64,000 nt of DNA from an archaeon (lineage in GTDB: Archaea > Methanobacteriota_B > Thermococci > Methanofastidiosales > NM3). Below, piece by piece: positions 2,816 to 64,000 of the stretch (within the stretch, counting starts at the first letter, position 1; every line of letters starts with the position of its first letter). The stretch covers positions 143,679 through 207,678 of the forward strand of contig RXIG01000001.1 in NCBI GenBank assembly GCA_004212155.1, in the 5' to 3' direction. The notes under the pieces are model-generated. The model was given only the letters and a program-made list of their open reading frames with translations. It was not told the DNA's origin and did no database searches. Made by a program: the position numbers and the translations under genes.

Positions 2816-2915
2816 TGCAATGCGACACGTTGTCTACGTGTGCCACATAGCTGTCAAGAATGGTAGTTTTTCACCACTAAGCAATGTTTAAATAGTTTTC
2901 TATAGCAACGGGCAC

Positions 2916-3524
2916 ATGGGAAAACGAAGGCATCTGGCATGTTTGCTTGTCGTTTGCGTGACGCTCATACTCATCATGGTCGAGGATGCGTTGCCCGCAT
3001 CGTCGTTTGATGGCTTTATATACAAGGAGTTCGTACTCTATCTTGCAATACCCCTCGTGGCCGCATACGCTCTTCGCAGATCCGTGCGCCCATTTGGCTT
3101 TGCACTAGGCGACAGGAAGAAGGTGGCCCGGTATGCAGTGATGCTCTACGGGATTGGCATACCTTTCATGATCGTGGGGTCGCGCATGAGCGCATTTCGT
3201 GCGTATTATCCTCGTTTCTCATTCGGCTCCTGGGAGGAGCTTGTATACTGGGAGCTCATGATAGGTGTTTTGATGCTCTCGACCGAGTTTTTCTTTCGTG
3301 GATTTCTCATGTTCGGGTGCAAGCGTGTCGGCAGGTGGGCCATACTGCTACAGGCCGTCCCCTATGCTTACATCCACCTGGGCAAGCCGATGCTCGAGGT
3401 CTACTACTCATTCTTCGCGGGCCTTGCGTTCGGATACATCGACTGGGAGTCCAAAAGCATCCTTCCTTCGTTTCTCGTTCACTGGTGCGCATCGGTGACC
3501 TTTGACATCCTCTGCATGGTGTGA
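2916..3524 (+). CDS. CPBP (CAAX/Abi) intramembrane protease, sortase-like MrtA-type candidate
   Basis: STEFFFRG, HLGKP and SFLVHW motifs; multiple TM segments. Confidence 0.82.
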   Translation: MGKRRHLACLLVVCVTLILIMVEDALPASSFDGFIYKEFVLYLAIPLVAAYALRRSVRPFGFALGDRKKVARYAVMLYGIGIPFMIVGSRMSAFRAYYPRFSFGSWEELVYWELMIGVLMLSTEFFFRGFLMFGCKRVGRWAILLQAVPYAYIHLGKPMLEVYYSFFAGLAFGYIDWESKSILPSFLVHWCASVTFDILCMV

Positions 3525-3555
3525 TAATCTTTATAAGCGAATCCTCAGAGAGTAT

Positions 3556-4113
3556 ATGACAACGATGAGGGCCCATTACAAGTATCCATTCTTGCTCGTG
3601 CTCGTCACGATCGTGGGCGTGGCGGTGTTTTCACTCTTCTACACGCCGGAACAGAGCCTCTCTATCGTGCTCCATGAGCGTGACACGAACATGACGGTCC
3701 ATGTTCCCCTGTCGACCGTGCTCGAGCGATGCGAGGTAAAGGAACGGATCGTAAACGATGTGTGGCGAAACGAACTGATGACGTATGACTGCATCACGCT
3801 GCACGAGCTCCTTACGGATTCGGGGTATTTCTCCGAAGCACAGGAAGGCTTCGTATGCATGACAAACATACAGGGCACGATGGTATGCATACCAAGGGAG
3901 GACATCGCTGCCCATCCGCAACAGTTCCTCTTCGCAGTGGGGCGATCGGGTGAGGACCTTGCCGTAAGCTTTTCCAACACACCCGAAGCAGGGGGCCCGA
4001 TGCGCGTGCTTATCGAATATGACGATACGCTTACTCAGGAGGAATACGGCCCATCGTACTGGATGTGGTGCGTCTACAAGATCAGTCTTGTACGAGAAGA
4101 TCCTCGCTCGTGA
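3556..4113 (+). CDS. Membrane-anchored hypothetical protein, weakly resembling molybdopterin-binding oxidoreductase domains
   Basis: N-terminal TM helix; GGPMRVLI...WMWCVYKI C-terminal pattern. Confidence 0.6.
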   Translation: MTTMRAHYKYPFLLVLVTIVGVAVFSLFYTPEQSLSIVLHERDTNMTVHVPLSTVLERCEVKERIVNDVWRNELMTYDCITLHELLTDSGYFSEAQEGFVCMTNIQGTMVCIPREDIAAHPQQFLFAVGRSGEDLAVSFSNTPEAGGPMRVLIEYDDTLTQEEYGPSYWMWCVYKISLVREDPRS

Positions 4114-4306
4114 CGTTAAGGATCACGCTATCACCGAGCTTGGACACCTTGTCCATGCTCACGAGGACCGATGTGCGAAATCCCTTGTGCACCTCGAGTG
4201 CCGTGATGGCATACGTAGTGGCGTCGAACTCCACATCGTGTACCTTGCCCATTTCCCGGGCATCAACATCATATACCCGTTTTCCCAAGAGCGACTTTAC
4301 CATCAT
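4082..4306 (-). CDS. PRC-barrel domain protein
   Basis: LLGKRVYDVDAREMGKVHDVEFD...VSKLGDSVIL pattern. Confidence 0.82.
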   Translation of the reverse strand: MMVKSLLGKRVYDVDAREMGKVHDVEFDATTYAITALEVHKGFRTSVLVSMDKVSKLGDSVILNVTSEDLLVQD

Positions 4307-4420
4307 TGTGAACACCTTTTTTATTATCATTACGGGCTGTTAATTATTTTTATTCTCTGCACTCTAAATTATATATTAGTGTCTATAAAAAACACTTCTA
4401 TCCTTTAAAACCAAAAGATT

Positions 4421-4438
4421 TATAAGTATATACTTATA
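4421..4438. promoter_or_regulatory. Palindrome TATAAGTATATACTTATA overlapping BRE/TATA (CCAAAAGATTTATAA); putative ArsR operator
   Basis: Perfect inverted repeat; related copy at 13740-13757. Confidence 0.6.
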
Positions 4439-4466
4439 TCTATATATATTGAAGATAGGAAATGAT

Positions 4467-5141
4467 ATGATGAAGATTGGATTTTTACCCTGTCAGGGGA
4501 CTTGTAATGTAGGAGTCATGACCTCAAAAATAGCTATGGGATTTGCAGAAAAAGGGGTCGGCGACATGGTATGCCCGCTTGGTATACCTTTGGGTCTAGA
4601 AGGGATACTAAAGAAGGCAAAAACAAATGATCGATTCATTGCATTGAACGGCTGCACCCTCAAATGTGCTTCAAAGACATTGGATTCGGCAGATCTACGA
4701 GAATATCAGGAAGTAGTGCTTACTTCAGATTTCGGCATTGAAAAAAACAAGAACTACCATGAGGAGAATGGAATGGAACGGGTGGCAAAACACGTTTCCC
4801 AAATGCTTTCTGAAATGTTGGAAAAAGACGTGGAGTCCCCTATATTTCCTTCCGAACAAGAAAAACAAGAAAGAAGTGGTACCATGGACGAAGAACTGAT
4901 GGAAAAGATAAAAACCCTAAGCAACGATGAGAAAGAGGAGGTCATTCGTATAATCCTTCCTGAAGCCTGTAAGGATATGCAACAGATGAAACGAATGATG
5001 ATGCCTATTTGCATGGATATGATGCAAAAAGGAAATACTACCATGGATGAGATGATGGGCATGATGATGAAGATGAGCAAAGAAATGCGCGAATCACAGA
5101 AAAAGCCCCCTCACAATGGATGCGGCTGCGGATGTTGCTAA
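4467..5141 (+). CDS. DGC-domain putative zinc-binding protein with Met-rich extension and CGCGCC tail
   Basis: PCQGTCNVG, MVC and ALNGCTLKCA motifs; C-terminal region rich in Met. Confidence 0.78.
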   Translation: MMKIGFLPCQGTCNVGVMTSKIAMGFAEKGVGDMVCPLGIPLGLEGILKKAKTNDRFIALNGCTLKCASKTLDSADLREYQEVVLTSDFGIEKNKNYHEENGMERVAKHVSQMLSEMLEKDVESPIFPSEQEKQERSGTMDEELMEKIKTLSNDEKEEVIRIILPEACKDMQQMKRMMMPICMDMMQKGNTTMDEMMGMMMKMSKEMRESQKKPPHNGCGCGCC

Positions 5142-55915: not shown

Positions 55916-56584
55916 ATGGGATTCGTGCAGCTTTCAAGCGGCGGCAAGGACTCTGTCTATTCTATGCATCGTGCCATGCAGCAGGGTGTTTCATTCTCCG
56001 AGATCCTTACTGTCGTCCCCCGTCGCGAGGACTCCTACATGTTCCATTACCCCAATGCACGATGGGCCGAGCTGCAGGCCAGGGCGATGGACCTTCCGCA
56101 CCGTTTCGTACATACCGAGGGCGTCAAGGAGCGCGAACTTGAAGACCTCAGGGATGCTTTGGCGTCCATGGACATCGATGGCGTGTGCAGCGGGGCGGTG
56201 AAGTCGTCGTATCAGTTCGATCGCATCAAGGCACTGTGCGATGACCTTAATCTGGAATGCATCTCCCCGTTATGGCAGTGCGATGAACGGGCGCTCATTC
56301 ACGAGGCTGCATCGGTGCTTGATATCGTGATCGTCGGTGTATATGCGTGGGGACTTGGGCGCGACCTCTTAGGACGCCACATCGATGAGGAATTTCTTGC
56401 ATTCCTTGATGTGGCACACGAGCGCTATGGCGTCAATTACGTTGGTGAAGGGGGAGAATATGAGACGTACGTCGTCGATGCGCCCCAATTCAAAAAAAGC
56501 ATTCATATCATGGATTCCTCGGTCGTATGGGAACGTGATTCTGGATATCTTTCAATAACTAGCGCAACACTTGAAGATAAATAA
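55916..56584 (+). CDS. dph6: Diphthine--ammonia ligase family protein
   Basis: SGGKDS, DSYMFH, SPLW and GEGGEYET motifs. Confidence 0.9.
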   Translation: MGFVQLSSGGKDSVYSMHRAMQQGVSFSEILTVVPRREDSYMFHYPNARWAELQARAMDLPHRFVHTEGVKERELEDLRDALASMDIDGVCSGAVKSSYQFDRIKALCDDLNLECISPLWQCDERALIHEAASVLDIVIVGVYAWGLGRDLLGRHIDEEFLAFLDVAHERYGVNYVGEGGEYETYVVDAPQFKKSIHIMDSSVVWERDSGYLSITSATLEDK

Positions 56585-56679
56585 GTTATAGTATAATATT
56601 TTTAATTCTTTAATATTTTTATATTCTTGATAGTTATATTATTTATTTTTTAGAATATAATATAGGAATATTTTTATAT

Positions 56680-56713
56680 ATGGGTATATTATCCATACAA
56701 ACCTTTTTATATA
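56680..56713 (+). promoter_or_regulatory. Palindrome ATGGGTA-TAT-TATCCAT followed after 7 nt by TTTTTATATA
   Basis: Same element and spacing recur at 58709-58742. Confidence 0.68.
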
Positions 56714-56782
56714 TATTTCATGAGATAACGCGAGATTTCAAAGATGGAATCTCTTTTTTACTATATGTGCGGAGGAAAAAAT

Positions 56783-58534
56783 ATGGTACGTGAAATGACA
56801 CCAAAAAGAAGATTTCTGACCGCTTTGCAAGGCGGTAACACGGACCGAAGGTCCGCTATCGTTCTTTCAAACTTCGTTGTTCCACTCATGGAAGCAACAG
56901 GCGTAAGCTGGCCAGACTGCCAGTTGAAGCCCGAAGTGCTTGCCAAGTTCCAGGCCGGACGATACGAAGTGTGTGGCCTTGACAGCATTTTCAGCCACAA
57001 TGACCTCGTGAGCGAAGTGACGCAGATCGGCGGTACCGACATTATCGACATTGGAACGAAGGACAGGCACCCTTCTGTTGTCAAGCACATCTGGAAAGGC
57101 AAGGAGCCAGAGGACTGCGCCATCCCGGAGAATGCTATAGAGAACGGCCGAAACCCCATCATACAGGGTTGTCTCGATATCGTCTCTGAGAACTATGGCG
57201 ACACCGTCAGCTGTTGCCGAGTGCTTACCGGTCCGATCACCGTAGCAGGCCACCTTTGGGGCGTTGAGCCACTTCTCGAGATGTCAAAGACAAACCCCGA
57301 CAAGTTCATGCAGTGTCTGGACATCGTCAACGACCTTCTTATCGATACGGCACGCGATGCGATCGACAATCATGGTGCTGATTCGGTCTACATGCCCGAC
57401 CCGACAGCATCCGGCGACCTTCTCTCGCCAGCATCGTTTAGCCAGCTCATGCTTCCCATCTACCAGCGATTCACGAAGGCGATCAAGGATGTTCCATCAT
57501 TCTTGCACATCTGCGGAAACACAGCACCGTTCCTTATGCACGCACCCGACTCGGGATTCGATGCGTTCTCATTCGAGGCGCCCGGCTGCGTCGCAGCCGA
57601 TGCGAAGCGCACCATCGGCGACAGGATGGCGCTCATCGGCTCGCTTGAGACCGTTCGCGTCATGATGCTTGGCTCGCCTGAGCTTGTTTACCAGGAAGCA
57701 CTTGAAAACATCAGAGACGGCGTTGACATCGTGTCCCCAGCATGCGGCACTCCACCATACACGCCGATCGAGAACATCAAGGCTCTCGTCGACGCGACGA
57801 AAAAGCATGAGAAGAAGAAAAAGAAAAGGAAGCCCAAGGTAGAGATCGTTGCCGAGTTCATGCCTGAAGGACCCAAGTTCAAGGAACTCACCGAGGTCGT
57901 GATGGAGGGTGACGCAGAATCGGCGGAAAAGATCACCAAGCAGCTTCTCGAAGAGGGCGTCGACGCCGTTGACATCGTCGAGAAGGCGCTCCTCCCAGGT
58001 GCGATCGCCGTTGCAAAGCTCTACGACGGAGGCTACGTCTTCGTGCCGGAGATCCTCCTTGCCAGCGGAGCGATGCAGGCAGGCATCGAGCACTGCAAGG
58101 ACGCTCTTGCAGGCATCGAGAAGCAGGGCAAGATCATCATGCACGTCGCAGATGGTGATGTCCACGAGATCGGCAAGAACATCGTCGCAACGATCCTCGA
58201 GGCCAAGGGGTATGAGGTCGTCGACCTTGGAAAGTCCGTGTTGCCCGACAAGGTCATCGAGGCCATCAAGAACGAGAAGCCCGATGTCGTCTCAGGCACG
58301 TCGCTCATGACATCGACCCGAAACGCCTTCCCGAAGATCGCTGCGAAGATGCAGGAAGAAGGCCTCAACCAACCATTCGTCGTTGCAGGAGGCTCAGTCG
58401 ACACGACCTTTGCAGAGTCCATGGACTTTGCCATCTACGCAGACGGTCCAGAGGTCGGCGACTCCGTCCTCAAGGCTGCCAAGCAGGGCAAGTCATGGAA
58501 GGACATCCGCGACGAGGTCCATTCGTCATACTAA
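56783..58534 (+). CDS. Fused MT2 (MtaA/MtsA/CmuA family) methyltransferase and corrinoid protein, paralog 1
   Basis: MTPKRRF, DPTAS, Zn ligands LHICG and PACG, Lys-rich linker, FVPEILL cap, DVHEIG (DxHxxG). Confidence 0.93.
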   Translation: MVREMTPKRRFLTALQGGNTDRRSAIVLSNFVVPLMEATGVSWPDCQLKPEVLAKFQAGRYEVCGLDSIFSHNDLVSEVTQIGGTDIIDIGTKDRHPSVVKHIWKGKEPEDCAIPENAIENGRNPIIQGCLDIVSENYGDTVSCCRVLTGPITVAGHLWGVEPLLEMSKTNPDKFMQCLDIVNDLLIDTARDAIDNHGADSVYMPDPTASGDLLSPASFSQLMLPIYQRFTKAIKDVPSFLHICGNTAPFLMHAPDSGFDAFSFEAPGCVAADAKRTIGDRMALIGSLETVRVMMLGSPELVYQEALENIRDGVDIVSPACGTPPYTPIENIKALVDATKKHEKKKKKRKPKVEIVAEFMPEGPKFKELTEVVMEGDAESAEKITKQLLEEGVDAVDIVEKALLPGAIAVAKLYDGGYVFVPEILLASGAMQAGIEHCKDALAGIEKQGKIIMHVADGDVHEIGKNIVATILEAKGYEVVDLGKSVLPDKVIEAIKNEKPDVVSGTSLMTSTRNAFPKIAAKMQEEGLNQPFVVAGGSVDTTFAESMDFAIYADGPEVGDSVLKAAKQGKSWKDIRDEVHSSY

Positions 58535-58540
58535 GCCCAC

Positions 58541-58581
58541 GAAAGGGCCGACATGCTCGGCCCTTTCTTCCCTTTTTCTTT
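58541..58581 (+). terminator. 11-bp hairpin followed by a pyrimidine/T-rich tract
   Basis: GAAAGGGCCGA-CATGC-TCGGCCCTTTC then TTCCCTTTTTCTTT, just after the stop. Confidence 0.7.
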
Positions 58582-58708
58582 GTGCCTTATAGTATACTAT
58601 ATAATGAATGTTCAATAATCGAACATTGTATAATATTTGTTGATTTTATTGACTTGCCTTTAAGGGTATTAGTCAATTTTAGTAAATTATTCTCATTAAG
58701 AATTTATC

Positions 58709-58742
58709 ATGGATAAAATATCCATAAAAATGTTTTTATAAA
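58709..58742 (+). promoter_or_regulatory. Perfect palindrome ATGGATA-AAA-TATCCAT followed after 7 nt by TTTTTATAAA
   Basis: Matches the 56680 element in sequence and spacing. Confidence 0.68.
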
Positions 58743-58803
58743 TTGCTATAGAATATATCGTTGATTTATTAAATTAAATAAATCAAAATGGGAGGAATAC
58801 TTA

Positions 58804-60555
58804 ATGGTAGGAGAAATGACACCTAAAAGGAGACACCTTACTGCCTTACAAGGCGGCAAGACAGATAGACCCTCCGTAATAGTCCTTTCGAACTTTGTTC
58901 TTGAGTTGATGGACGCCACCGGCGTTGATTGGCCTGCCTGTCAGGTCGAACCAGAAGCTCTTGCAAAGTTGCAAGCGGGACGATACGAAGTGTGTGGTCT
59001 TGACAGTCTTCTATGCCACAATGATCTTGTAAGTGAAACATCAACGATTGGCGGAGAAGATATTATAGATATTGGAAAGAAGGATCGCCAACCTTCTGTT
59101 ACGAAACATGTGTGGGCCGGAAAAGATCCTGATGATTGCTCTATCCCTGATGATGCTCTTGACCGCGGAAGAAATCCTCTATTGCAGCAAACTTTGGATA
59201 TACTATCTTCCAATTATGGGGACACCGTATCTATCACGAAAATGATAACGGGCCCCATGACTGTGGCAGGCCACCTTTGGGGCGTTGAGCCACTTCTCGA
59301 GATGTCAAAGACAAATCCAGATAAATTCATACAATCAATTGACCTCGTTACTGACCTTTTAATCGACATAGCAAGGGATGCCATCGATAACCATGGTGCC
59401 GATTCAGTATATATGCCTGATCCGACTGCTTCGGGTGACCTGCTCTCCCCCGCAGCTTTTGATCAATATCTCAATCCCATATACAGGCGTTTTACACGCG
59501 CCATAAAGGATGTTCCATCATATCTGCATATCTGTGGTGACACGACAGGGTTCCTTATGTATGCACCGTACAGTGGATTCGATGCTTTTTCGTACGAATC
59601 ACCTGGCTGTTACACTATCGATGCAAAACGAGCTCTGGGTGACAGGATGGCCCTCATAGGGTCTCTTGAAACGGTGCGCGTTATCATGCTCGGTTCACCA
59701 GAGCTCATCGAGAAAGAGGCCCTGCAGGACCTTCGCGACGGTGCTGATATTCTTTGCCCAGCTTGTGGCACGCCACCATACACCCCGCTCGAAAACATCA
59801 AGGCTCTCGTCGATGCGGCCAAGCCAAAGGAGAAGAAGAAAAAGAAGAAGCGGCCAAAGAAGGAGATTGTTGCCGAGTTCATGCCCGAGGATGCAAAGCT
59901 TCGCGAGCTTACCGAGGTCGTTATGGACGGTGACAGTGCAACGAGCGAGAAGCTGACCGTTTCCCTTCTCGATGAAGGATACAAACCACTCGACATTGTT
60001 GAAAACGCACTCCTTCCTGGTGCAATCGCTGTTGCAAAGCTCTACGACGGCGGCTACGTCTTCGTGCCCGAGATCTTGCTTTCGAGCGGCGCCATGCAGG
60101 CAGGTATCAAGCACTGCAAGGATGCAATGGGCGATGTTGCAAAGAAGGGTAAGATCCTTATGCACGTCGCAGATGGTGACGTCCACGAGATTGGCAAGAA
60201 CATCGTCGCAACGATCCTCGAGGCCAAGGGGTATGAGGTTGCTGACCTTGGAAAGTCTGTGCCCGTCGACAAAGTTATTGAAGGGATCAAGAAGGAAAAG
60301 CCTGATGTCGTTTCTGGTACATCGCTCATGACATCTACTCGAAACGCGTTCCCCAAGATTTCAGAGCAGATGAAAAAGGAAGGGATTGAGCTACCTTTTG
60401 TCGTTGCCGGTGGCTCAGTTGACACGACCTTTGCAGAGACCATGGAGTTTGCGATATACGCCGATGGTCCAGAAGTTGGTGATGAGATCATCAAGGCAGC
60501 CAAAGGCGGTAAAGGTTGGAAGGAGATACGGAAAGACGTACATTCTTCATACTAA
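58804..60555 (+). CDS. Fused MT2 methyltransferase and corrinoid protein, paralog 2
   Basis: Same domains and motifs as paralog 1 (LHICG, PACG, DVHEIG); both end VHSSY. Confidence 0.93.
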   Translation: MVGEMTPKRRHLTALQGGKTDRPSVIVLSNFVLELMDATGVDWPACQVEPEALAKLQAGRYEVCGLDSLLCHNDLVSETSTIGGEDIIDIGKKDRQPSVTKHVWAGKDPDDCSIPDDALDRGRNPLLQQTLDILSSNYGDTVSITKMITGPMTVAGHLWGVEPLLEMSKTNPDKFIQSIDLVTDLLIDIARDAIDNHGADSVYMPDPTASGDLLSPAAFDQYLNPIYRRFTRAIKDVPSYLHICGDTTGFLMYAPYSGFDAFSYESPGCYTIDAKRALGDRMALIGSLETVRVIMLGSPELIEKEALQDLRDGADILCPACGTPPYTPLENIKALVDAAKPKEKKKKKKRPKKEIVAEFMPEDAKLRELTEVVMDGDSATSEKLTVSLLDEGYKPLDIVENALLPGAIAVAKLYDGGYVFVPEILLSSGAMQAGIKHCKDAMGDVAKKGKILMHVADGDVHEIGKNIVATILEAKGYEVADLGKSVPVDKVIEGIKKEKPDVVSGTSLMTSTRNAFPKISEQMKKEGIELPFVVAGGSVDTTFAETMEFAIYADGPEVGDEIIKAAKGGKGWKEIRKDVHSSY

Positions 60556-60676
60556 AATCTTTTTTTTCTTTTTTATTCTCTTTTTTTTATTATAATAAAT
60601 ATAAAATGTTCGTAGTGAATGCACGGTTACCGATAAGGTTTTTATAATATTCATGTCATGTTACGTCGGTGTCAGT

Positions 60677-62572
60677 ATGGCCAAGGTAACTTTTGAACCA
60701 TCGGGTAAGAAGATCAACGTCTCCTCCGGCATATCAGTGCTCGAGGCTGCAAACAACGCTGGTGTGGGCATTGATGCGCCTTGCGGAGGAAAGGGGACAT
60801 GCGGAAAGTGCAAGGTCTACCTCAATCAAGGTACATTGGGCGAAGTAACGGCGAGCGAGCGGAAGGTATTTTCTGCAGGTGATATCGAGAAAGGCGCGCG
60901 TCTTGCATGCCGTGCAACGATACAGGGTGACTGTATCATCGACGTACCGAAGGAAAGCCTACTCGGTGAACAAAAGATCCTTGTCGATGGAGCCGAATAT
61001 CCTGTGGAGATAGACCCGTTGGTGAAAGTCTTTAGCGTGACACTGCCCAAACCAACCCTTGAGGACAACGCCTGTGACTGGCATCGTCTTCAGGATGCTT
61101 TGGCAGAACAAACGGACTATGATTCCATTGACATGGACATATCCACGCTGCGAACACTTCCCAAGATAATCAGGGACCACAAGTATACTATTTCTGTTAC
61201 GATGTATCGCAATCGAGTGCTTGCTGTAGGTGACCCCTCGCTCGATGGCGTATATGGTGCAGCCGTTGACATTGGCACCACGACGATGGTCGCATACGTG
61301 ATGGACCTTGTTTCTGGCAAGATCATCGGCGTTGGTTCGATGATGAACCCTCAGATACCGTATGGCGACGACCTCATGGCTCGTATATCCTACTCATTCA
61401 AGGAGGAGAATCTGGAAAAGTTATCCAAGCTCGTGGTCGATGGTGTGAACAAGATCATCAACGAGGGTTGCGAGAAGGCTGGCATCGAGATGTCGTCGCT
61501 TTCAGAAGTAACGATTGTTGGCAATACTGCAATGCATCACATATTCCTGAGATTGTATCCAAAATACCTTTCACTAGCACCGTACTGTCCTGCGGTTCAG
61601 CAGCCGCTTGACCTCCGTGCTTCAGATGTACCCATCAATATCAACCCAGTTGGAAATGTGCATATGCTGCCTGTCGTAGCAGGATTCGTCGGATCAGACC
61701 ACCTCGGCGTCATATTGTCGTGTGATATCCATAAGAGTTCCGAGATGACCCTTGCAATCGATGTCGGCACGAACGGCGAGATCGTCCTAGGCAACAAGGA
61801 TGGGATGGTATGTTGCTCGGCGGCAGCAGGCCCAGCGCTTGAAGGTTCGACCATCAAGTATGGTATGAGGGCAGCTGATGGGGCAATCGAAAATGTCAAC
61901 ATCAGCCGCGGCAGCCTTAATGTCAAGTATAAGACGATAGGTGGCTCCAAGCCGTTGGGCATTTGCGGTTCGGGCATCATTGATGTCGTTGCCGAGATGC
62001 TCAAATCCGCTGTCATCGATGTAACGGGCAAGATCCGCGAGCGACTCGAGGATGAAAACGATCGTGTCCGCGAGGGCGACCATGGATATGAGTTCGTGCT
62101 CGAATGGGCCCGAAAGACCAAGATCAAAAAGGACATCGTCATCACGTCAAACGACCTTCGCGAGATCCAGCTAGCCAAGTCTGCGATGTATGCTGGTGCC
62201 TCGATACTCATGAGCCATAAAGGCATCACGGCCAAGGACATCGACAGAGTTCTCATCGCTGGTGCGTTTGGCAATTACATTGATGTAGAGAATGCCATGA
62301 CAATAGGCCTTTTCCCGGAAGTGCCACTTGACAAGGTGAAGTCCGTCGGGAACGCTGCCGGCACCGGTGCGCGCATGTCACTCATATCGGGCGTGAAGCG
62401 CGAAGAGGAACGCGAGATCCTCGAAAAGCTCCGCTACATCGAACTTGCAACGCACGATACGTTCCAGGACGAGTTCGTCTCTGCCATGAACCTTCCGCAC
62501 AAGGACATATCGCTTTTCTCTGAAACGATGAAGAAGGTCTATGCGCCCATACCCGTGAAGAACAACAGGTGA
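60677..62572 (+). CDS. ASKHA-fold ATP-dependent corrinoid reductive activator (RACo type, N-terminal [2Fe-2S])
   Basis: CGGKGTCGKC...RLAC, DIGTTT, DVGTNGE, AAGPALEG, GICGSG and AGAFG motifs. Confidence 0.92.
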   Translation: MAKVTFEPSGKKINVSSGISVLEAANNAGVGIDAPCGGKGTCGKCKVYLNQGTLGEVTASERKVFSAGDIEKGARLACRATIQGDCIIDVPKESLLGEQKILVDGAEYPVEIDPLVKVFSVTLPKPTLEDNACDWHRLQDALAEQTDYDSIDMDISTLRTLPKIIRDHKYTISVTMYRNRVLAVGDPSLDGVYGAAVDIGTTTMVAYVMDLVSGKIIGVGSMMNPQIPYGDDLMARISYSFKEENLEKLSKLVVDGVNKIINEGCEKAGIEMSSLSEVTIVGNTAMHHIFLRLYPKYLSLAPYCPAVQQPLDLRASDVPININPVGNVHMLPVVAGFVGSDHLGVILSCDIHKSSEMTLAIDVGTNGEIVLGNKDGMVCCSAAAGPALEGSTIKYGMRAADGAIENVNISRGSLNVKYKTIGGSKPLGICGSGIIDVVAEMLKSAVIDVTGKIRERLEDENDRVREGDHGYEFVLEWARKTKIKKDIVITSNDLREIQLAKSAMYAGASILMSHKGITAKDIDRVLIAGAFGNYIDVENAMTIGLFPEVPLDKVKSVGNAAGTGARMSLISGVKREEEREILEKLRYIELATHDTFQDEFVSAMNLPHKDISLFSETMKKVYAPIPVKNNR

Positions 62573-62916
62573 AACAACGAATGTATGATTCCATCGAGGA
62601 GATCGATGAGCAGCTTGAAAAGCTGCGAAAACGCAAGGAGAAGGCAAAAGACCTTATCGACATGAATACGTACGGTGGCCTTGTGCGGGGCAGTGTCCAG
62701 CGAGCAGGCATCAGGGAGAAGGAAAATGAGTTGCTCCGCAGACGTGAGCAACTGCTTAAGCGTGGCAAGACTTCACAGCATGGCCCCTACTTCGAACAGG
62801 CAGGAAAGGCACTGGACAATCTCGCCGCCGTGCTTGCCCATGACCGTCCCGAAGAGGAAAAGCGCATTCGCGCCATGATAAAAGAGTTAAAAGAACTGAG
62901 ATCTGAGTTGGATTAA
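62569..62916 (+). CDS. Hypothetical charged helical protein coupled to the activator gene
   Basis: GTGA overlap with the activator stop; coiled-coil-like composition. Confidence 0.6.
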   Translation: MKQRMYDSIEEIDEQLEKLRKRKEKAKDLIDMNTYGGLVRGSVQRAGIREKENELLRRREQLLKRGKTSQHGPYFEQAGKALDNLAAVLAHDRPEEEKRIRAMIKELKELRSELD

Positions 62917-63200
62917 CGGGGTTTTCCCCCGTACTTTTTCCTTGTTTCCTTTGCCTTTTTTGATGCATCGTCCTGGCGTTTCTTGAAATATTCCGGTCCG
63001 CGCACTATTTCAACAAACTTTGATTGGAAGATCAACCAAAACACGATGATGTATGCGAAAGTGATCAGGTCGTTGTTGGTGATATAGTTGCGTATGAACC
63101 ACACACCACCCACACCGACAACGAATGCGAGGATCGTGAGAGGGAGCAGACGTTCCAATATCTTTGGGTCTAGCTTCTTCTTTTGTTTTGGCATTTTCAT
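62913..63200 (-). CDS. Small two-TM membrane protein with basic termini
   Basis: 95-aa ORF with two hydrophobic segments. Confidence 0.65.
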   Translation of the reverse strand: MKMPKQKKKLDPKILERLLPLTILAFVVGVGGVWFIRNYITNNDLITFAYIIVFWLIFQSKFVEIVRGPEYFKKRQDDASKKAKETRKKYGGKPR

Positions 63201-63206
63201 GGTGTT

Positions 63207-63425
63207 CTACTCCGATTCCAGTTCGTTTCCCTCTTCCTTCTCCTTTTTGCGTTTTTGAGCGGGACTAATAAATTGCCATAGAAATATCAACACAAGGAAG
63301 AATCCAACGACAAATATGTCGAGATAATCTTCTGATAAATTGCCTCCCCCTTGCATCAACCTGTAGGCAAATATGAATATGAACATGACGATAAGTAATA
63401 TACCTACGGCTTTTCTTTCATTCAT
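63207..63425 (-). CDS. Small two-TM membrane protein
   Basis: 72-aa ORF; GGTGA upstream of the start. Confidence 0.65.
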   Translation of the reverse strand: MNERKAVGILLIVMFIFIFAYRLMQGGGNLSEDYLDIFVVGFFLVLIFLWQFISPAQKRKKEKEEGNELESE

Positions 63426-63559
63426 GTAATTTTCACCAGAATTGACTATGTTGGTAGTTTTAAAAAGTTAACGTCACACTGTACAATAGTAGCGCGATAT
63501 AAAAACGATGTTTTAGAAAAATGATAAAAAGAAAAAAAGAGAAGGTGAAGTTTCTTCAC

Positions 63560-64000
63560 CTATTTTTCAGGAGTGACCTTCTCTTCGGGTACATCCTTTG
63601 CCCTGAGCCTCTCGGCTTTCTTCTCCTCCTTCGTACCGTACTCAAGAGCAAGGTAGAAGAGGACACCCATGAGCAGAGCCCAGGTCGCACCACGTGTCGC
63701 GAGGATACCGCCGGTCATGCCTGCGATACCGCGCTCGAGATTGGTCGTCACCATCTCCATTGCCAGGTACGTACAGAGATATCCCTGCACAGCCATCGTG
63801 AGACCGAAGCCGTATGGGAGTGCTGGCCTGACGACGAGCACGAGCGGGTAGACGAGCATGATGATCGACATACCCCAGAAGAGGCCGGTCGCACCGCCCC
63901 AGTAGGAATATTCCTCATCTGGCGTGGAGTTCTTGAACCTGTTGACGACAAGCGCCTGACCCGCTGTCCACTGCGGACCTGCGAGAGGCAGGTACGGCCA
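63560..64000 (-). CDS. C-terminal part of a multi-pass membrane protein, probable solute transporter (5' end outside the window)
   Basis: Frame open from 64000: WPYLPLAGPQWTAGQALVVNRFK..., then several TM segments. Confidence 0.7.
   Translation of the reverse strand, partial: WPYLPLAGPQWTAGQALVVNRFKNSTPDEEYSYWGGATGLFWGMSIIMLVYPLVLVVRPALPYGFGLTMAVQGYLCTYLAMEMVTTNLERGIAGMTGGILATRGATWALLMGVLFYLALEYGTKEEKKAERLRAKDVPEEKVTPEK

Follow-up and report, generated by a model that had tools for sequence, protein, structure and literature searches.

Tandem fused corrinoid methyltransferases with a RACo-type activase in a Methanofastidiosales genome: probable methylated-thiol:coenzyme M methyltransferases

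A window of 64,000 nucleotides (nt) from contig RXIG01000001.1 (assembly GCA_004212155.1), whose positions supply all coordinates below that carry no contig name of their own, includes four open reading frames (ORFs) that all run in one direction. Two tandem genes, here called fusA and fusB, each encode a methyltransferase 2 (MT2) domain fused to a corrinoid-binding region, and they are followed by a gene for a RACo-type activase and by a small conserved ORF. The products of fusA and fusB are probably single-chain, corrinoid-dependent methyl-X:coenzyme M (CoM) methyltransferases, for which methylated thiols such as methanethiol, dimethylsulfide or their relatives are the most likely donors, a reading to which we assign a probability of about 0.58. 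By sequence comparison, they are orthologs of an annotated protein from Candidatus (Ca.) Methanofastidiosum, and thus belong to a known kind that is without biochemistry so far. The new details offered by the locus are modest: a tandem pair of old paralogs, a dedicated activase with a candidate helper ORF, and a putative operator. An earlier note on this DNA had described the locus as a self-contained methyl-transfer module; the observation is confirmed, with corrected gene starts, and its interpretation is partly supported.

Architecture of the fused methyltransferases

The two fusion genes, fusA (56783..58534, plus strand) and fusB (58804..60555, plus strand), each encode 583 amino acids (aa), and their products are 76% identical over 583 residues, with zero gaps. 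Each matches the Pfam families URO-D (E = 2e-53 for fusA and 9.4e-52 for fusB), B12-binding_2 and B12-binding, giving an MT2 domain followed by a B12 cap and a B12-binding domain. Both exceed the 235.4-bit cut-off of the MtaA/CmuA subfamily model TIGR01463 (263.9 and 251.7 bits, respectively). The catalytic motifs are intact. The zinc motif H242-x-C244 ... C321 is invariant in a 24-sequence alignment and aligns to the MtaA structure 4AY7; an H-x-C motif and a downstream cysteine are the established metal ligands of the MtaA/CmuA family. The His-on motif D459-x-H461-x-x-G464 is likewise invariant in the 24 sequences, and aligns to chain B of the MtaC structure 2I2X. An AlphaFold model of the fusion, with a predicted local distance difference test score (pLDDT) of 86.2, consists of a TIM barrel, a linker, a helical cap and a Rossmann domain; residues 343-349 of fusB form a lysine-rich linker that is disordered in the model. 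The earlier description of two colinear proteins of about 583 aa, each combining MT2, a B12 cap and a DxHxxG domain, is thus borne out by the domain matches, the subfamily scores and the invariant motifs.

The best solved-structure matches to the two halves are MtaA (4AY7, E = 2.2e-55) and MtaC (2I2X chain B). However, the Methanosarcina MtaA and MtaC are separate proteins that rely on MtaB, and the fusions do not reach the cut-offs of the corresponding equivalog models. Against the MtaA equivalog NF040654, they score 252.6 and 245.1 bits (cut-off 400), and against the MtbA equivalog NF041608, 166.3 and 165.3 bits (cut-off 600). The corrinoid halves are also below the MtaC, MtbC and MtgC equivalog cut-offs, with scores of 197-205 bits for the MtaC models.

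Relationship to known methyltransferases

The annotated ortholog, P0017 (584 aa; 'Methylated-thiol--coenzyme M methyltransferase [Ca. Methanofastidiosum methylothiophilum]'), is 55% identical to the fusions over the full length, and resembles them in domain order and length. A methylated-thiol methyltransferase of Ca. Methanofastidiosum was reportedly proposed by Nobu et al. in the ISME J in 2016. The earlier note had itself named this protein as a comparator, and the orthology shows that the fusions are not a new kind. In the literature covered, which did not extend to Nobu et al. 2016, no description of tandem fusions with a RACo gene was found.

A 49-row tree of MT2 domains places all Methanofastidiosales fusions, together with the close unfused copies of the order, in one clade (100/100) that is separate from the MtaA clade (99/97) and from the MtbA clade; the fused clade also has a support of 100 in a 44-row tree of full-length fusions. 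The references were all URO-D paralogs of two Methanosarcina genomes, labelled by NCBIfam and cluster names. As judged from these sequences, the fused clade is distinct from every labelled reference clade and is uncharacterised. For the affinities of the pair, which the earlier note had left to a phylogeny, the position outside the MtaA and MtbA clades is clear, but the link to an MtsA-like sequence is not, as detailed below.

Several characterised systems provide points of comparison. According to the available portions of PMC7374477 and bioRxiv 10.1101/548461, Methanosarcina barkeri MtsA performs both half-reactions with MtsB and without a separate MT1. MtsA and MtsB, a zinc-containing MT2-family enzyme and a corrinoid protein, are two polypeptides, whereas fusA and fusB are each one chain. 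MtsD, MtsF and MtsH (CmtA) are corrinoid/MT2 fusions and in that respect resemble fusA and fusB; in the accessible text of the same two sources they are required for the use of methanethiol (MeSH) and dimethylsulfide (DMS), and the accessible text of PMC7374477 gives preferences in M. acetivorans of DMS for MtsD, MeSH for MtsF and both for MtsH. No fused copy was found in the two Methanosarcina genomes searched. The domain order in MtsD/F/H is corrinoid first, the opposite of the MT2-corrinoid order in fusA and fusB, and it is this order that sets the two groups apart, in a comparison made without an authentic MtsD/F/H sequence.

Fused and unfused forms are interspersed in several places. P0068 (574 aa, from a public assembly) is an MT2-first, corrinoid-last fusion from outside Methanofastidiosales whose group (100/100) otherwise consists of unfused proteins of 355 aa, including one labelled Methanoregula sp.; the MT2-first order therefore arose independently. 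In the sister family, the unfused P0027, P0029 and P0033 nest inside the fused clade beside the sequence from genome G010 (97/78), which indicates repeated events of fusion and fission. The host genome itself has an unfused MT2 gene (C17:56035-57039), 54% identical to the MT2 domain of the fusion and without an adjoining corrinoid gene.

Distribution of the fusion and of MT1 genes

The host genome (1.49 Mb in 28 contigs, 89.8% complete) carries mcrA, a point that the earlier note had left to a check of the genome, and its nearest proteins, at 74-91% identity, are labelled Candidatus Methanofastidiosa. The distribution of the fusion was assessed in a class-level sample of 121 genomes by counting matches of at least 48% identity. 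Such matches are present in all six other genomes of the host family (f1) and in 16 of the 17 genomes of family f3, the seventeenth (G064) having only 30% matches; none was detected in the six genomes of f2 or in the 85 of f5, a large non-methanogen family. Family f4 is matched in the corrinoid part only. Within the order, 23 of 34 genomes therefore have the fusion (seven from f1, including the host genome, and 16 from f3). In G022 (C71:31486-33224), the fusion homolog is in two pieces with one in-frame TGA, which may stem from a frameshift or from misassembly, or may mean that the gene is broken.

The classical MT1 genes follow a different pattern. MtaB occurs in the host genome only on contig C9, inside an mtaA-mtaC-mtaB-ramA cluster (C9:4979-9683), and in the order it was detected in two of 34 genomes, the host genome and G058, so that the methanol cluster looks like a lineage-specific gain. 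MttB, MtmB and MtbB had no match in the host genome, at its 89.8% completeness. The earlier statement that no MT1 gene is present thus holds for the window and for these three families, but not for mtaB, which lies elsewhere in the genome. Because MtaB is present in 2/34 genomes and the fusion in 23/34, and because MttB, MtmB and MtbB were not matched here, the fusion cannot depend on the classical MT1s.

Other methyl-transfer clusters are found in these genomes. On one strand of C1 (50263-56582), an aldehyde ferredoxin oxidoreductase gene, a corrinoid protein gene and two genes for URO-D-family methyltransferases accompany a corrinoid-first, MT2-last fusion, whose domain order is opposite to that of fusA and fusB and which falls in a different clade of the MT2 tree. 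On C10 (63594-66490) there is a triad of a corrinoid protein and two methyltransferases (MTs) of 359 and 342 aa, and in G004 (C1:665739-673257) two corrinoid-MT-MT sets adjoin a RACo homolog. The 359-aa methyltransferase of the triad is very divergent, forming the longest branch of the MT2 tree, and could be an MT1 for some donor.

The RACo-type activase and the small ORF

The third ORF (60677..62572, plus strand) matches Fer2, RACo_linker, Raco_middle and RACo_C_ter, all above the Pfam cut-offs, and C36, C42, C45 and C78 are invariant in six sequences. It scores 550.5 bits against the AcsV model (cut-off 800) and 131.5 bits against the RamA model TIGR04270 (cut-off 500), and has no Fer4 domain. 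RACo proteins perform an ATP-dependent reduction of Co(II) to Co(I), as stated in the available part of PMC6739815. The activase encoded with mtaB on C9 is of the RamA type, with an ASKHA region and a C-terminal Fer4 domain, whereas the window activase has the RACo (COG3894) layout and is linked here to a fused methyltransferase and to a small TPR-like ORF. The earlier identification of an ASKHA activator with an N-terminal [2Fe-2S] domain of the RACo type therefore stands. The layout is widespread in Archaea: 7987 of 8000 scored candidates matched at E <= 1e-30, and the named proteins among the matches listed (the best 120 of the 8000 candidates) are archaeal.

What distinguishes family f1 is the linkage. 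A RACo gene adjoins the fusion in six of six other f1 genomes, and in a 23-row tree the fusion-linked f1 lineage is separated from the G004 sequence and a second G008 copy, both groups having a Shimodaira-Hasegawa-like approximate likelihood ratio test (SH-aLRT) support of 100. The RACo homolog of f3 is 44-47% identical and located with a corrinoid/MT cluster elsewhere. G004, a complete genome of the Methanofastidiosum type, has one fusion gene with no RACo gene or small ORF adjoining it, compared to two tandem paralogs and both genes here, and its RACo homolog is 557 kb from the fusion. In G010, G014, G018, G020, G032, G042, G050 and G056, the RACo homolog and the fusion are on different contigs.

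The small ORF (62581..62916, plus strand, 111 aa) lies directly 3' of the RACo gene in five of the six other f1 genomes, and the contig of the sixth is cut. Among the genomes compared it was detected only in family f1, where its identity between genera is 35-43%. The ORF is tightly spaced and conserved after the RACo gene, but the coupling proposed in the earlier note depends on a GTG start that orthologs do not share, and the two genes need not overlap. The protein has no Pfam match, no useful NCBIfam match and no Foldseek match to the Protein Data Bank at E <= 0.001; its best Atlas score, 0.75, is a lead only. Its model has four helices (pLDDT 84.3). Searched as a profile against 1.84 billion representatives, the protein had 58 matches. 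Four of them are full-length (111-112 aa); the remaining 54 belong to longer proteins, matching mainly at positions ~60-110 and mostly several times each, and the three of these that were checked are TPR_12/TPR_10 proteins. Taken with the model, these matches suggest a family-restricted helical protein with a tetratricopeptide repeat (TPR)-like hairpin in its C-terminal half, plausibly an adaptor. A complex prediction of RACo with the small ORF scored 0.00, and counts neither way.

The module is rearranged in G044. On its contig C5, the RACo gene and the small ORF are inverted as a pair and run towards an A-type fusion (fusion on the plus strand at 85-1872, small ORF and RACo gene on the minus strand at 2488-2829 and 2841-4727, respectively); a second, B-type copy is on another short contig, adjoining a prenyltransferase gene.

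Divergence of the two paralogs

Two types of fusion can be distinguished in family f1 from the 44-row and MT2 trees. The A type comprises fusA, the sequences of G006, G016 and G036, and the RACo-proximal copies of genus g2; the B type comprises fusB, the sequence of G058, and the second copies of G008 and G044. The A-type clade has an SH-aLRT support of 99 in the 44-row tree, and fusB clusters with G044c32 and P0005 in the MT2 tree (100/99). Since the A and B lineages span genera g1 and g2, the split is older than both. B-type copies were seen in four of the seven family genomes and are absent from the intact locus in G006 and G036. Gene order also varies, being A-B-RACo in the host genome and B-A-RACo in G008.

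Between fusA and fusB, the nonsynonymous divergence (dN) is 0.17 and the synonymous divergence (dS) is 1.69, and both copies are therefore under purifying selection, with no recent conversion. There are 17 columns in which the A and B residues are disjoint, and 16 of these are in the MT2 domain, an enrichment with p = 0.0014 relative to its share of the length and p = 0.0025 relative to variable columns, although the sequences are related and not independent. In fusB numbering, the columns are 25, 33, 37, 71, 146, 147, 218, 222, 223, 249, 256, 277, 303, 308, 310, 339 and 563. Diagnostic sites 71, 146/147 and 249 fall within the three motifs that differ between the paralogs (SIFSHND/SLLCHND, CCRVLTGP/ITKMITGP and CGNTAP/CGDTTG). 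These are the motif differences quoted in the earlier note; they are present in the translations, and the differences between the types are kept between orthologs of two genera, with 16/17 columns in the catalytic domain. In the model, each of these sites is found where a barrel strand ends C-terminally or just past the zinc-binding strand, a position which, from barrel topology, would put them on the catalytic face. Given their age, the purifying selection on both and the concentration of their differences in the catalytic domain, the A and B types probably have different preferred donors.

A shared palindrome before the promoters

When the upstream regions are aligned, a palindrome, ATGGrTA-N3-TATCCAT, becomes apparent in front of both fusion genes, in each case 7 nt ahead of the TATA box. 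The copy of fusA (ATGGGTA-TAT-TATCCAT) is at 56680..56696 and that of fusB (ATGGATA-AAA-TATCCAT) at 58709..58725, both on the plus strand. With up to one mismatch, the host genome has seven sites, four of them exact, and the reversed control has none. An exact copy heads the C10 corrinoid-MT-MT cluster with the same TATA geometry, and a one-mismatch copy precedes mtaA on C9 with the same 7-nt spacing. Two further one-mismatch sites are at C12:1973 and at 150-166 of the window. In the C1 corrinoid/MT cluster, no palindrome was found within the 10 kb searched.

The element is also conserved across genomes. It is located 72-105 nt 5' of all seven assessable orthologous fusion genes, with zero to two mismatches, and there are two off-target matches with two mismatches. 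The combined pattern of palindrome and TATA box occurs at eight distinct sites in the seven family genomes (five fusion promoters and three heads of corrinoid-MT-MT clusters), and the control gave none. As in fusA and fusB, a palindrome-like site precedes the fusion of G004, ~92 nt 5' of the gene and with two mismatches. This distribution suggests that the palindrome is the putative operator of a methyl-transfer regulon, and its presence before each TATA box would place fusA and fusB in one regulon with other methyl-transfer operons. A search for a regulator of the FilR1/Msr type gave one sub-threshold match (21.9 bits, threshold 27), a winged helix-turn-helix protein on C14, which is a candidate only.

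The fourth exact copy lies at C17:4469-4485, directly 5' of genes for a DUF4430 protein and the S component of an energy-coupling factor (ECF) transporter and 3' of a radical-SAM gene. It was rejected as a regulon member because no TATA box is present at 7 nt, and a link to cofactor uptake would be a guess.

Proposed function and alternatives

If the two proteins act as single-chain methyltransferases on methylated thiols, the N-terminal zinc TIM-barrel domain would transfer the methyl group of a thioether to Co(I) in the cobamide that the C-terminal domain of the same chain binds base-off/His-on. The zinc domain would then hand this group on to CoM, at its zinc-activated thiol, much as M. barkeri MtsA does with MtsB, and methyl-CoM would pass to Mcr. 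The RACo-type activase would return adventitiously formed Co(II) to Co(I), using ATP and a low-potential electron, and the 111-aa helical, TPR-like protein may be an accessory of the activase.

A number of observations weigh against this assignment. The MtsA-like branch joins the fused clade at 52/34 only, and the MtsA-like reference itself (M. hadiensis L153, whose cluster was named methylthiol:CoM methyltransferase by JGI) is just 33% identical to the fusion. M. barkeri MtsA, the characterised MtsD/F/H and CmuA were left out of the MT2 tree. Beyond Methanofastidiosales, the MT2 domain has MtaA proteins as its closest named relatives (36-38% identity), and the corrinoid half most resembles MtaC (2I2X chain B, E = 1.2e-47). 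The 'methylated-thiol' name of the clade is itself an annotation, combined with an argument from missing MT1 genes, and we know of no enzyme assay for any member of the fused clade. How close the diagnostic sites lie to the pocket was estimated only from secondary structure and from the motifs around them. Mangrove Methanofastidiosa metagenome-assembled genomes have been reported to have Mta, Mtb and Mtt as well (PMC7302380, in the available part), and MtpA, a homolog of MtsA, is described as an MT1 only in the accessible part of bioRxiv 10.1101/548461. Dual activity of the fusions is therefore not to be assumed.

The fusions might instead carry out one half-reaction, either as a corrinoid carrier and MT2 loaded by an unlinked MT1, or as an MT1 and carrier unloaded by another MT2. 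We consider this unlikely, although MtpA and CmuA make it a real rival. CmuA, a bacterial (Methylobacterium) two-domain methyltransferase/corrinoid protein, performs the loading step only, needing CmuB and using tetrahydrofolate, in the available portion of PMC3621897, and MtsF co-purifies with MtpA/MtpC (bioRxiv 10.1101/548461, as far as available). The host genome also has nine URO-D-family genes that might supply a partner, including the unfused C17 copy (54%) and the corrinoid-MT-MT triads on C1 and C10. However, a close unfused paralog was found in f1 just in the host genome and in G058, and G006, G008, G016, G036 and G044 keep the module with no ~50% unfused match listed. The conserved module itself contains no further methyltransferase gene.

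It is rather improbable that the fusions work in another direction or on another class of donor, producing methylated thiols from methyl-CoM (as a sink or for detoxification) or demethylating a donor without sulfur, for instance a methoxylated or quaternary-amine constituent of crude oil. In favour of this, none of the labelled reference clades includes the fusions, the best metagenomes holding the DNA of the locus are from crude oil and an oil field (shares of 0.74 and 0.53), and MT2 enzymes are often of relaxed specificity according to the available text of bioRxiv 10.1101/548461. However, there is no positive evidence for any particular alternative donor, and zinc-thiol chemistry and the MtsA precedent (same source, in its available part) fit thioethers best. 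Finally, a role in the methanol pathway, as MtaA-MtaC fusions that MtaB would load, agrees with the nearest named homologs, the mtaB gene of the host genome and the one-mismatch palindrome at the mtaA promoter, but is very improbable given the mtaB cluster's own mtaA, mtaC and ramA, the far wider distribution of the fusion, and its scores below the MtaA and MtaC equivalog cut-offs and position outside the MtaA clade.

Gene starts, transcription signals and integrity of the locus

The fusA start is most likely ATG 56783 rather than the listed 56744, from which the ORF is probably too long. The sequences GGAGG at 56771-56775 for fusA and GGGAGG at 58790-58795 for fusB both lie 7-8 nt before the ATG. 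The RACo gene most likely starts at ATG 60677 (631 aa), because a TATA-like box lies only 7 nt from the alternative ATG 60653 (639 aa) and the start of the orthologs corresponds to MAKV. For the small ORF, the most likely start is ATG 62581, 8 nt past the RACo stop, as in its orthologs; from GTG 62569 it would encode 115 aa.

TATA-like boxes precede fusA (56704..56713, plus strand) and fusB (58733..58742, plus strand) in both the box scan and the sequence, and the box scan places a third, lacking the palindrome, before the RACo gene (60639..60646, plus strand). The window as a whole has 35 such boxes where 2.8 are expected, and they are mostly intergenic. A terminator-like hairpin with a T-rich run follows fusA (58541..58582, plus strand; -20.3 kcal/mol; z = -4.44), and 0/200 shuffles fold equally well. 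Oligo-T runs 3' of fusB (60556..60590, plus strand) resemble an archaeal terminator and may act as one. The separate promoters proposed in the earlier note thus agree with the two TATA-like boxes and with the terminator-like signals after each gene. An Rfam scan of 56000-64000 detected no RNA family.

Contigs with zero differences from other sequencing runs span the 3' end of fusA, the spacer and the 5' end of fusB, and the tandem layout is therefore not an artefact of one assembly. One contig of run X1 links 60192 in fusB back to 58172 in fusA over 47 shared letters, a distance of exactly the 2021-nt tandem period; it is either an artefact of the assembly graph or derives from a strain in which A and B have recombined into one gene. 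No RNA dataset is among those listed as containing the locus. One metatranscriptome (X21) yields only three short contigs, of which one falls in the fusA-fusB spacer, and these cannot serve as evidence of transcription. A related-locus search with fusB returned a single unrelated B12-domain match. Downstream, at 62913-63425 on the minus strand, two short ORFs (95 and 72 aa) with hydrophobic stretches run towards the small ORF, whose stop is overlapped over 4 nt by the first of them.

Implications

A bolder reading, which is doubtful at present, would make the fusions a third independent lineage of single-chain methyl-donor:CoM methyltransferases, in which the A and B types use different, possibly undescribed donors (e.g., organosulfur or other methylated compounds of petroleum reservoirs) and are served by a dedicated activase and a TPR-like helper, with a single palindromic operator controlling them jointly with the other methyl-transfer operons. 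If true, this operator would be the first cis-regulatory code for methylotrophic methanogenesis among these uncultured archaea.

The Methanofastidiosales, methanogens that have yet to be cultured, are thought to use methylated thiols and H2, an idea that rests on this fused protein. In-situ expression has been claimed for methyl-reducing Methanofastidiosum in the available part of PMC7382037. The locus described here is a compact and testable set, in which a diverged pair of paralogs comes with its own activase and a possible helper, and the diagnostic residues provide concrete positions for studies of specificity. The palindrome offers a handle on the switching of methyl-transfer operons, including the methanol operon of 2/34 genomes. 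For the microbiology of oil fields and digesters, these genes bear on which methyl compounds feed methane formation.

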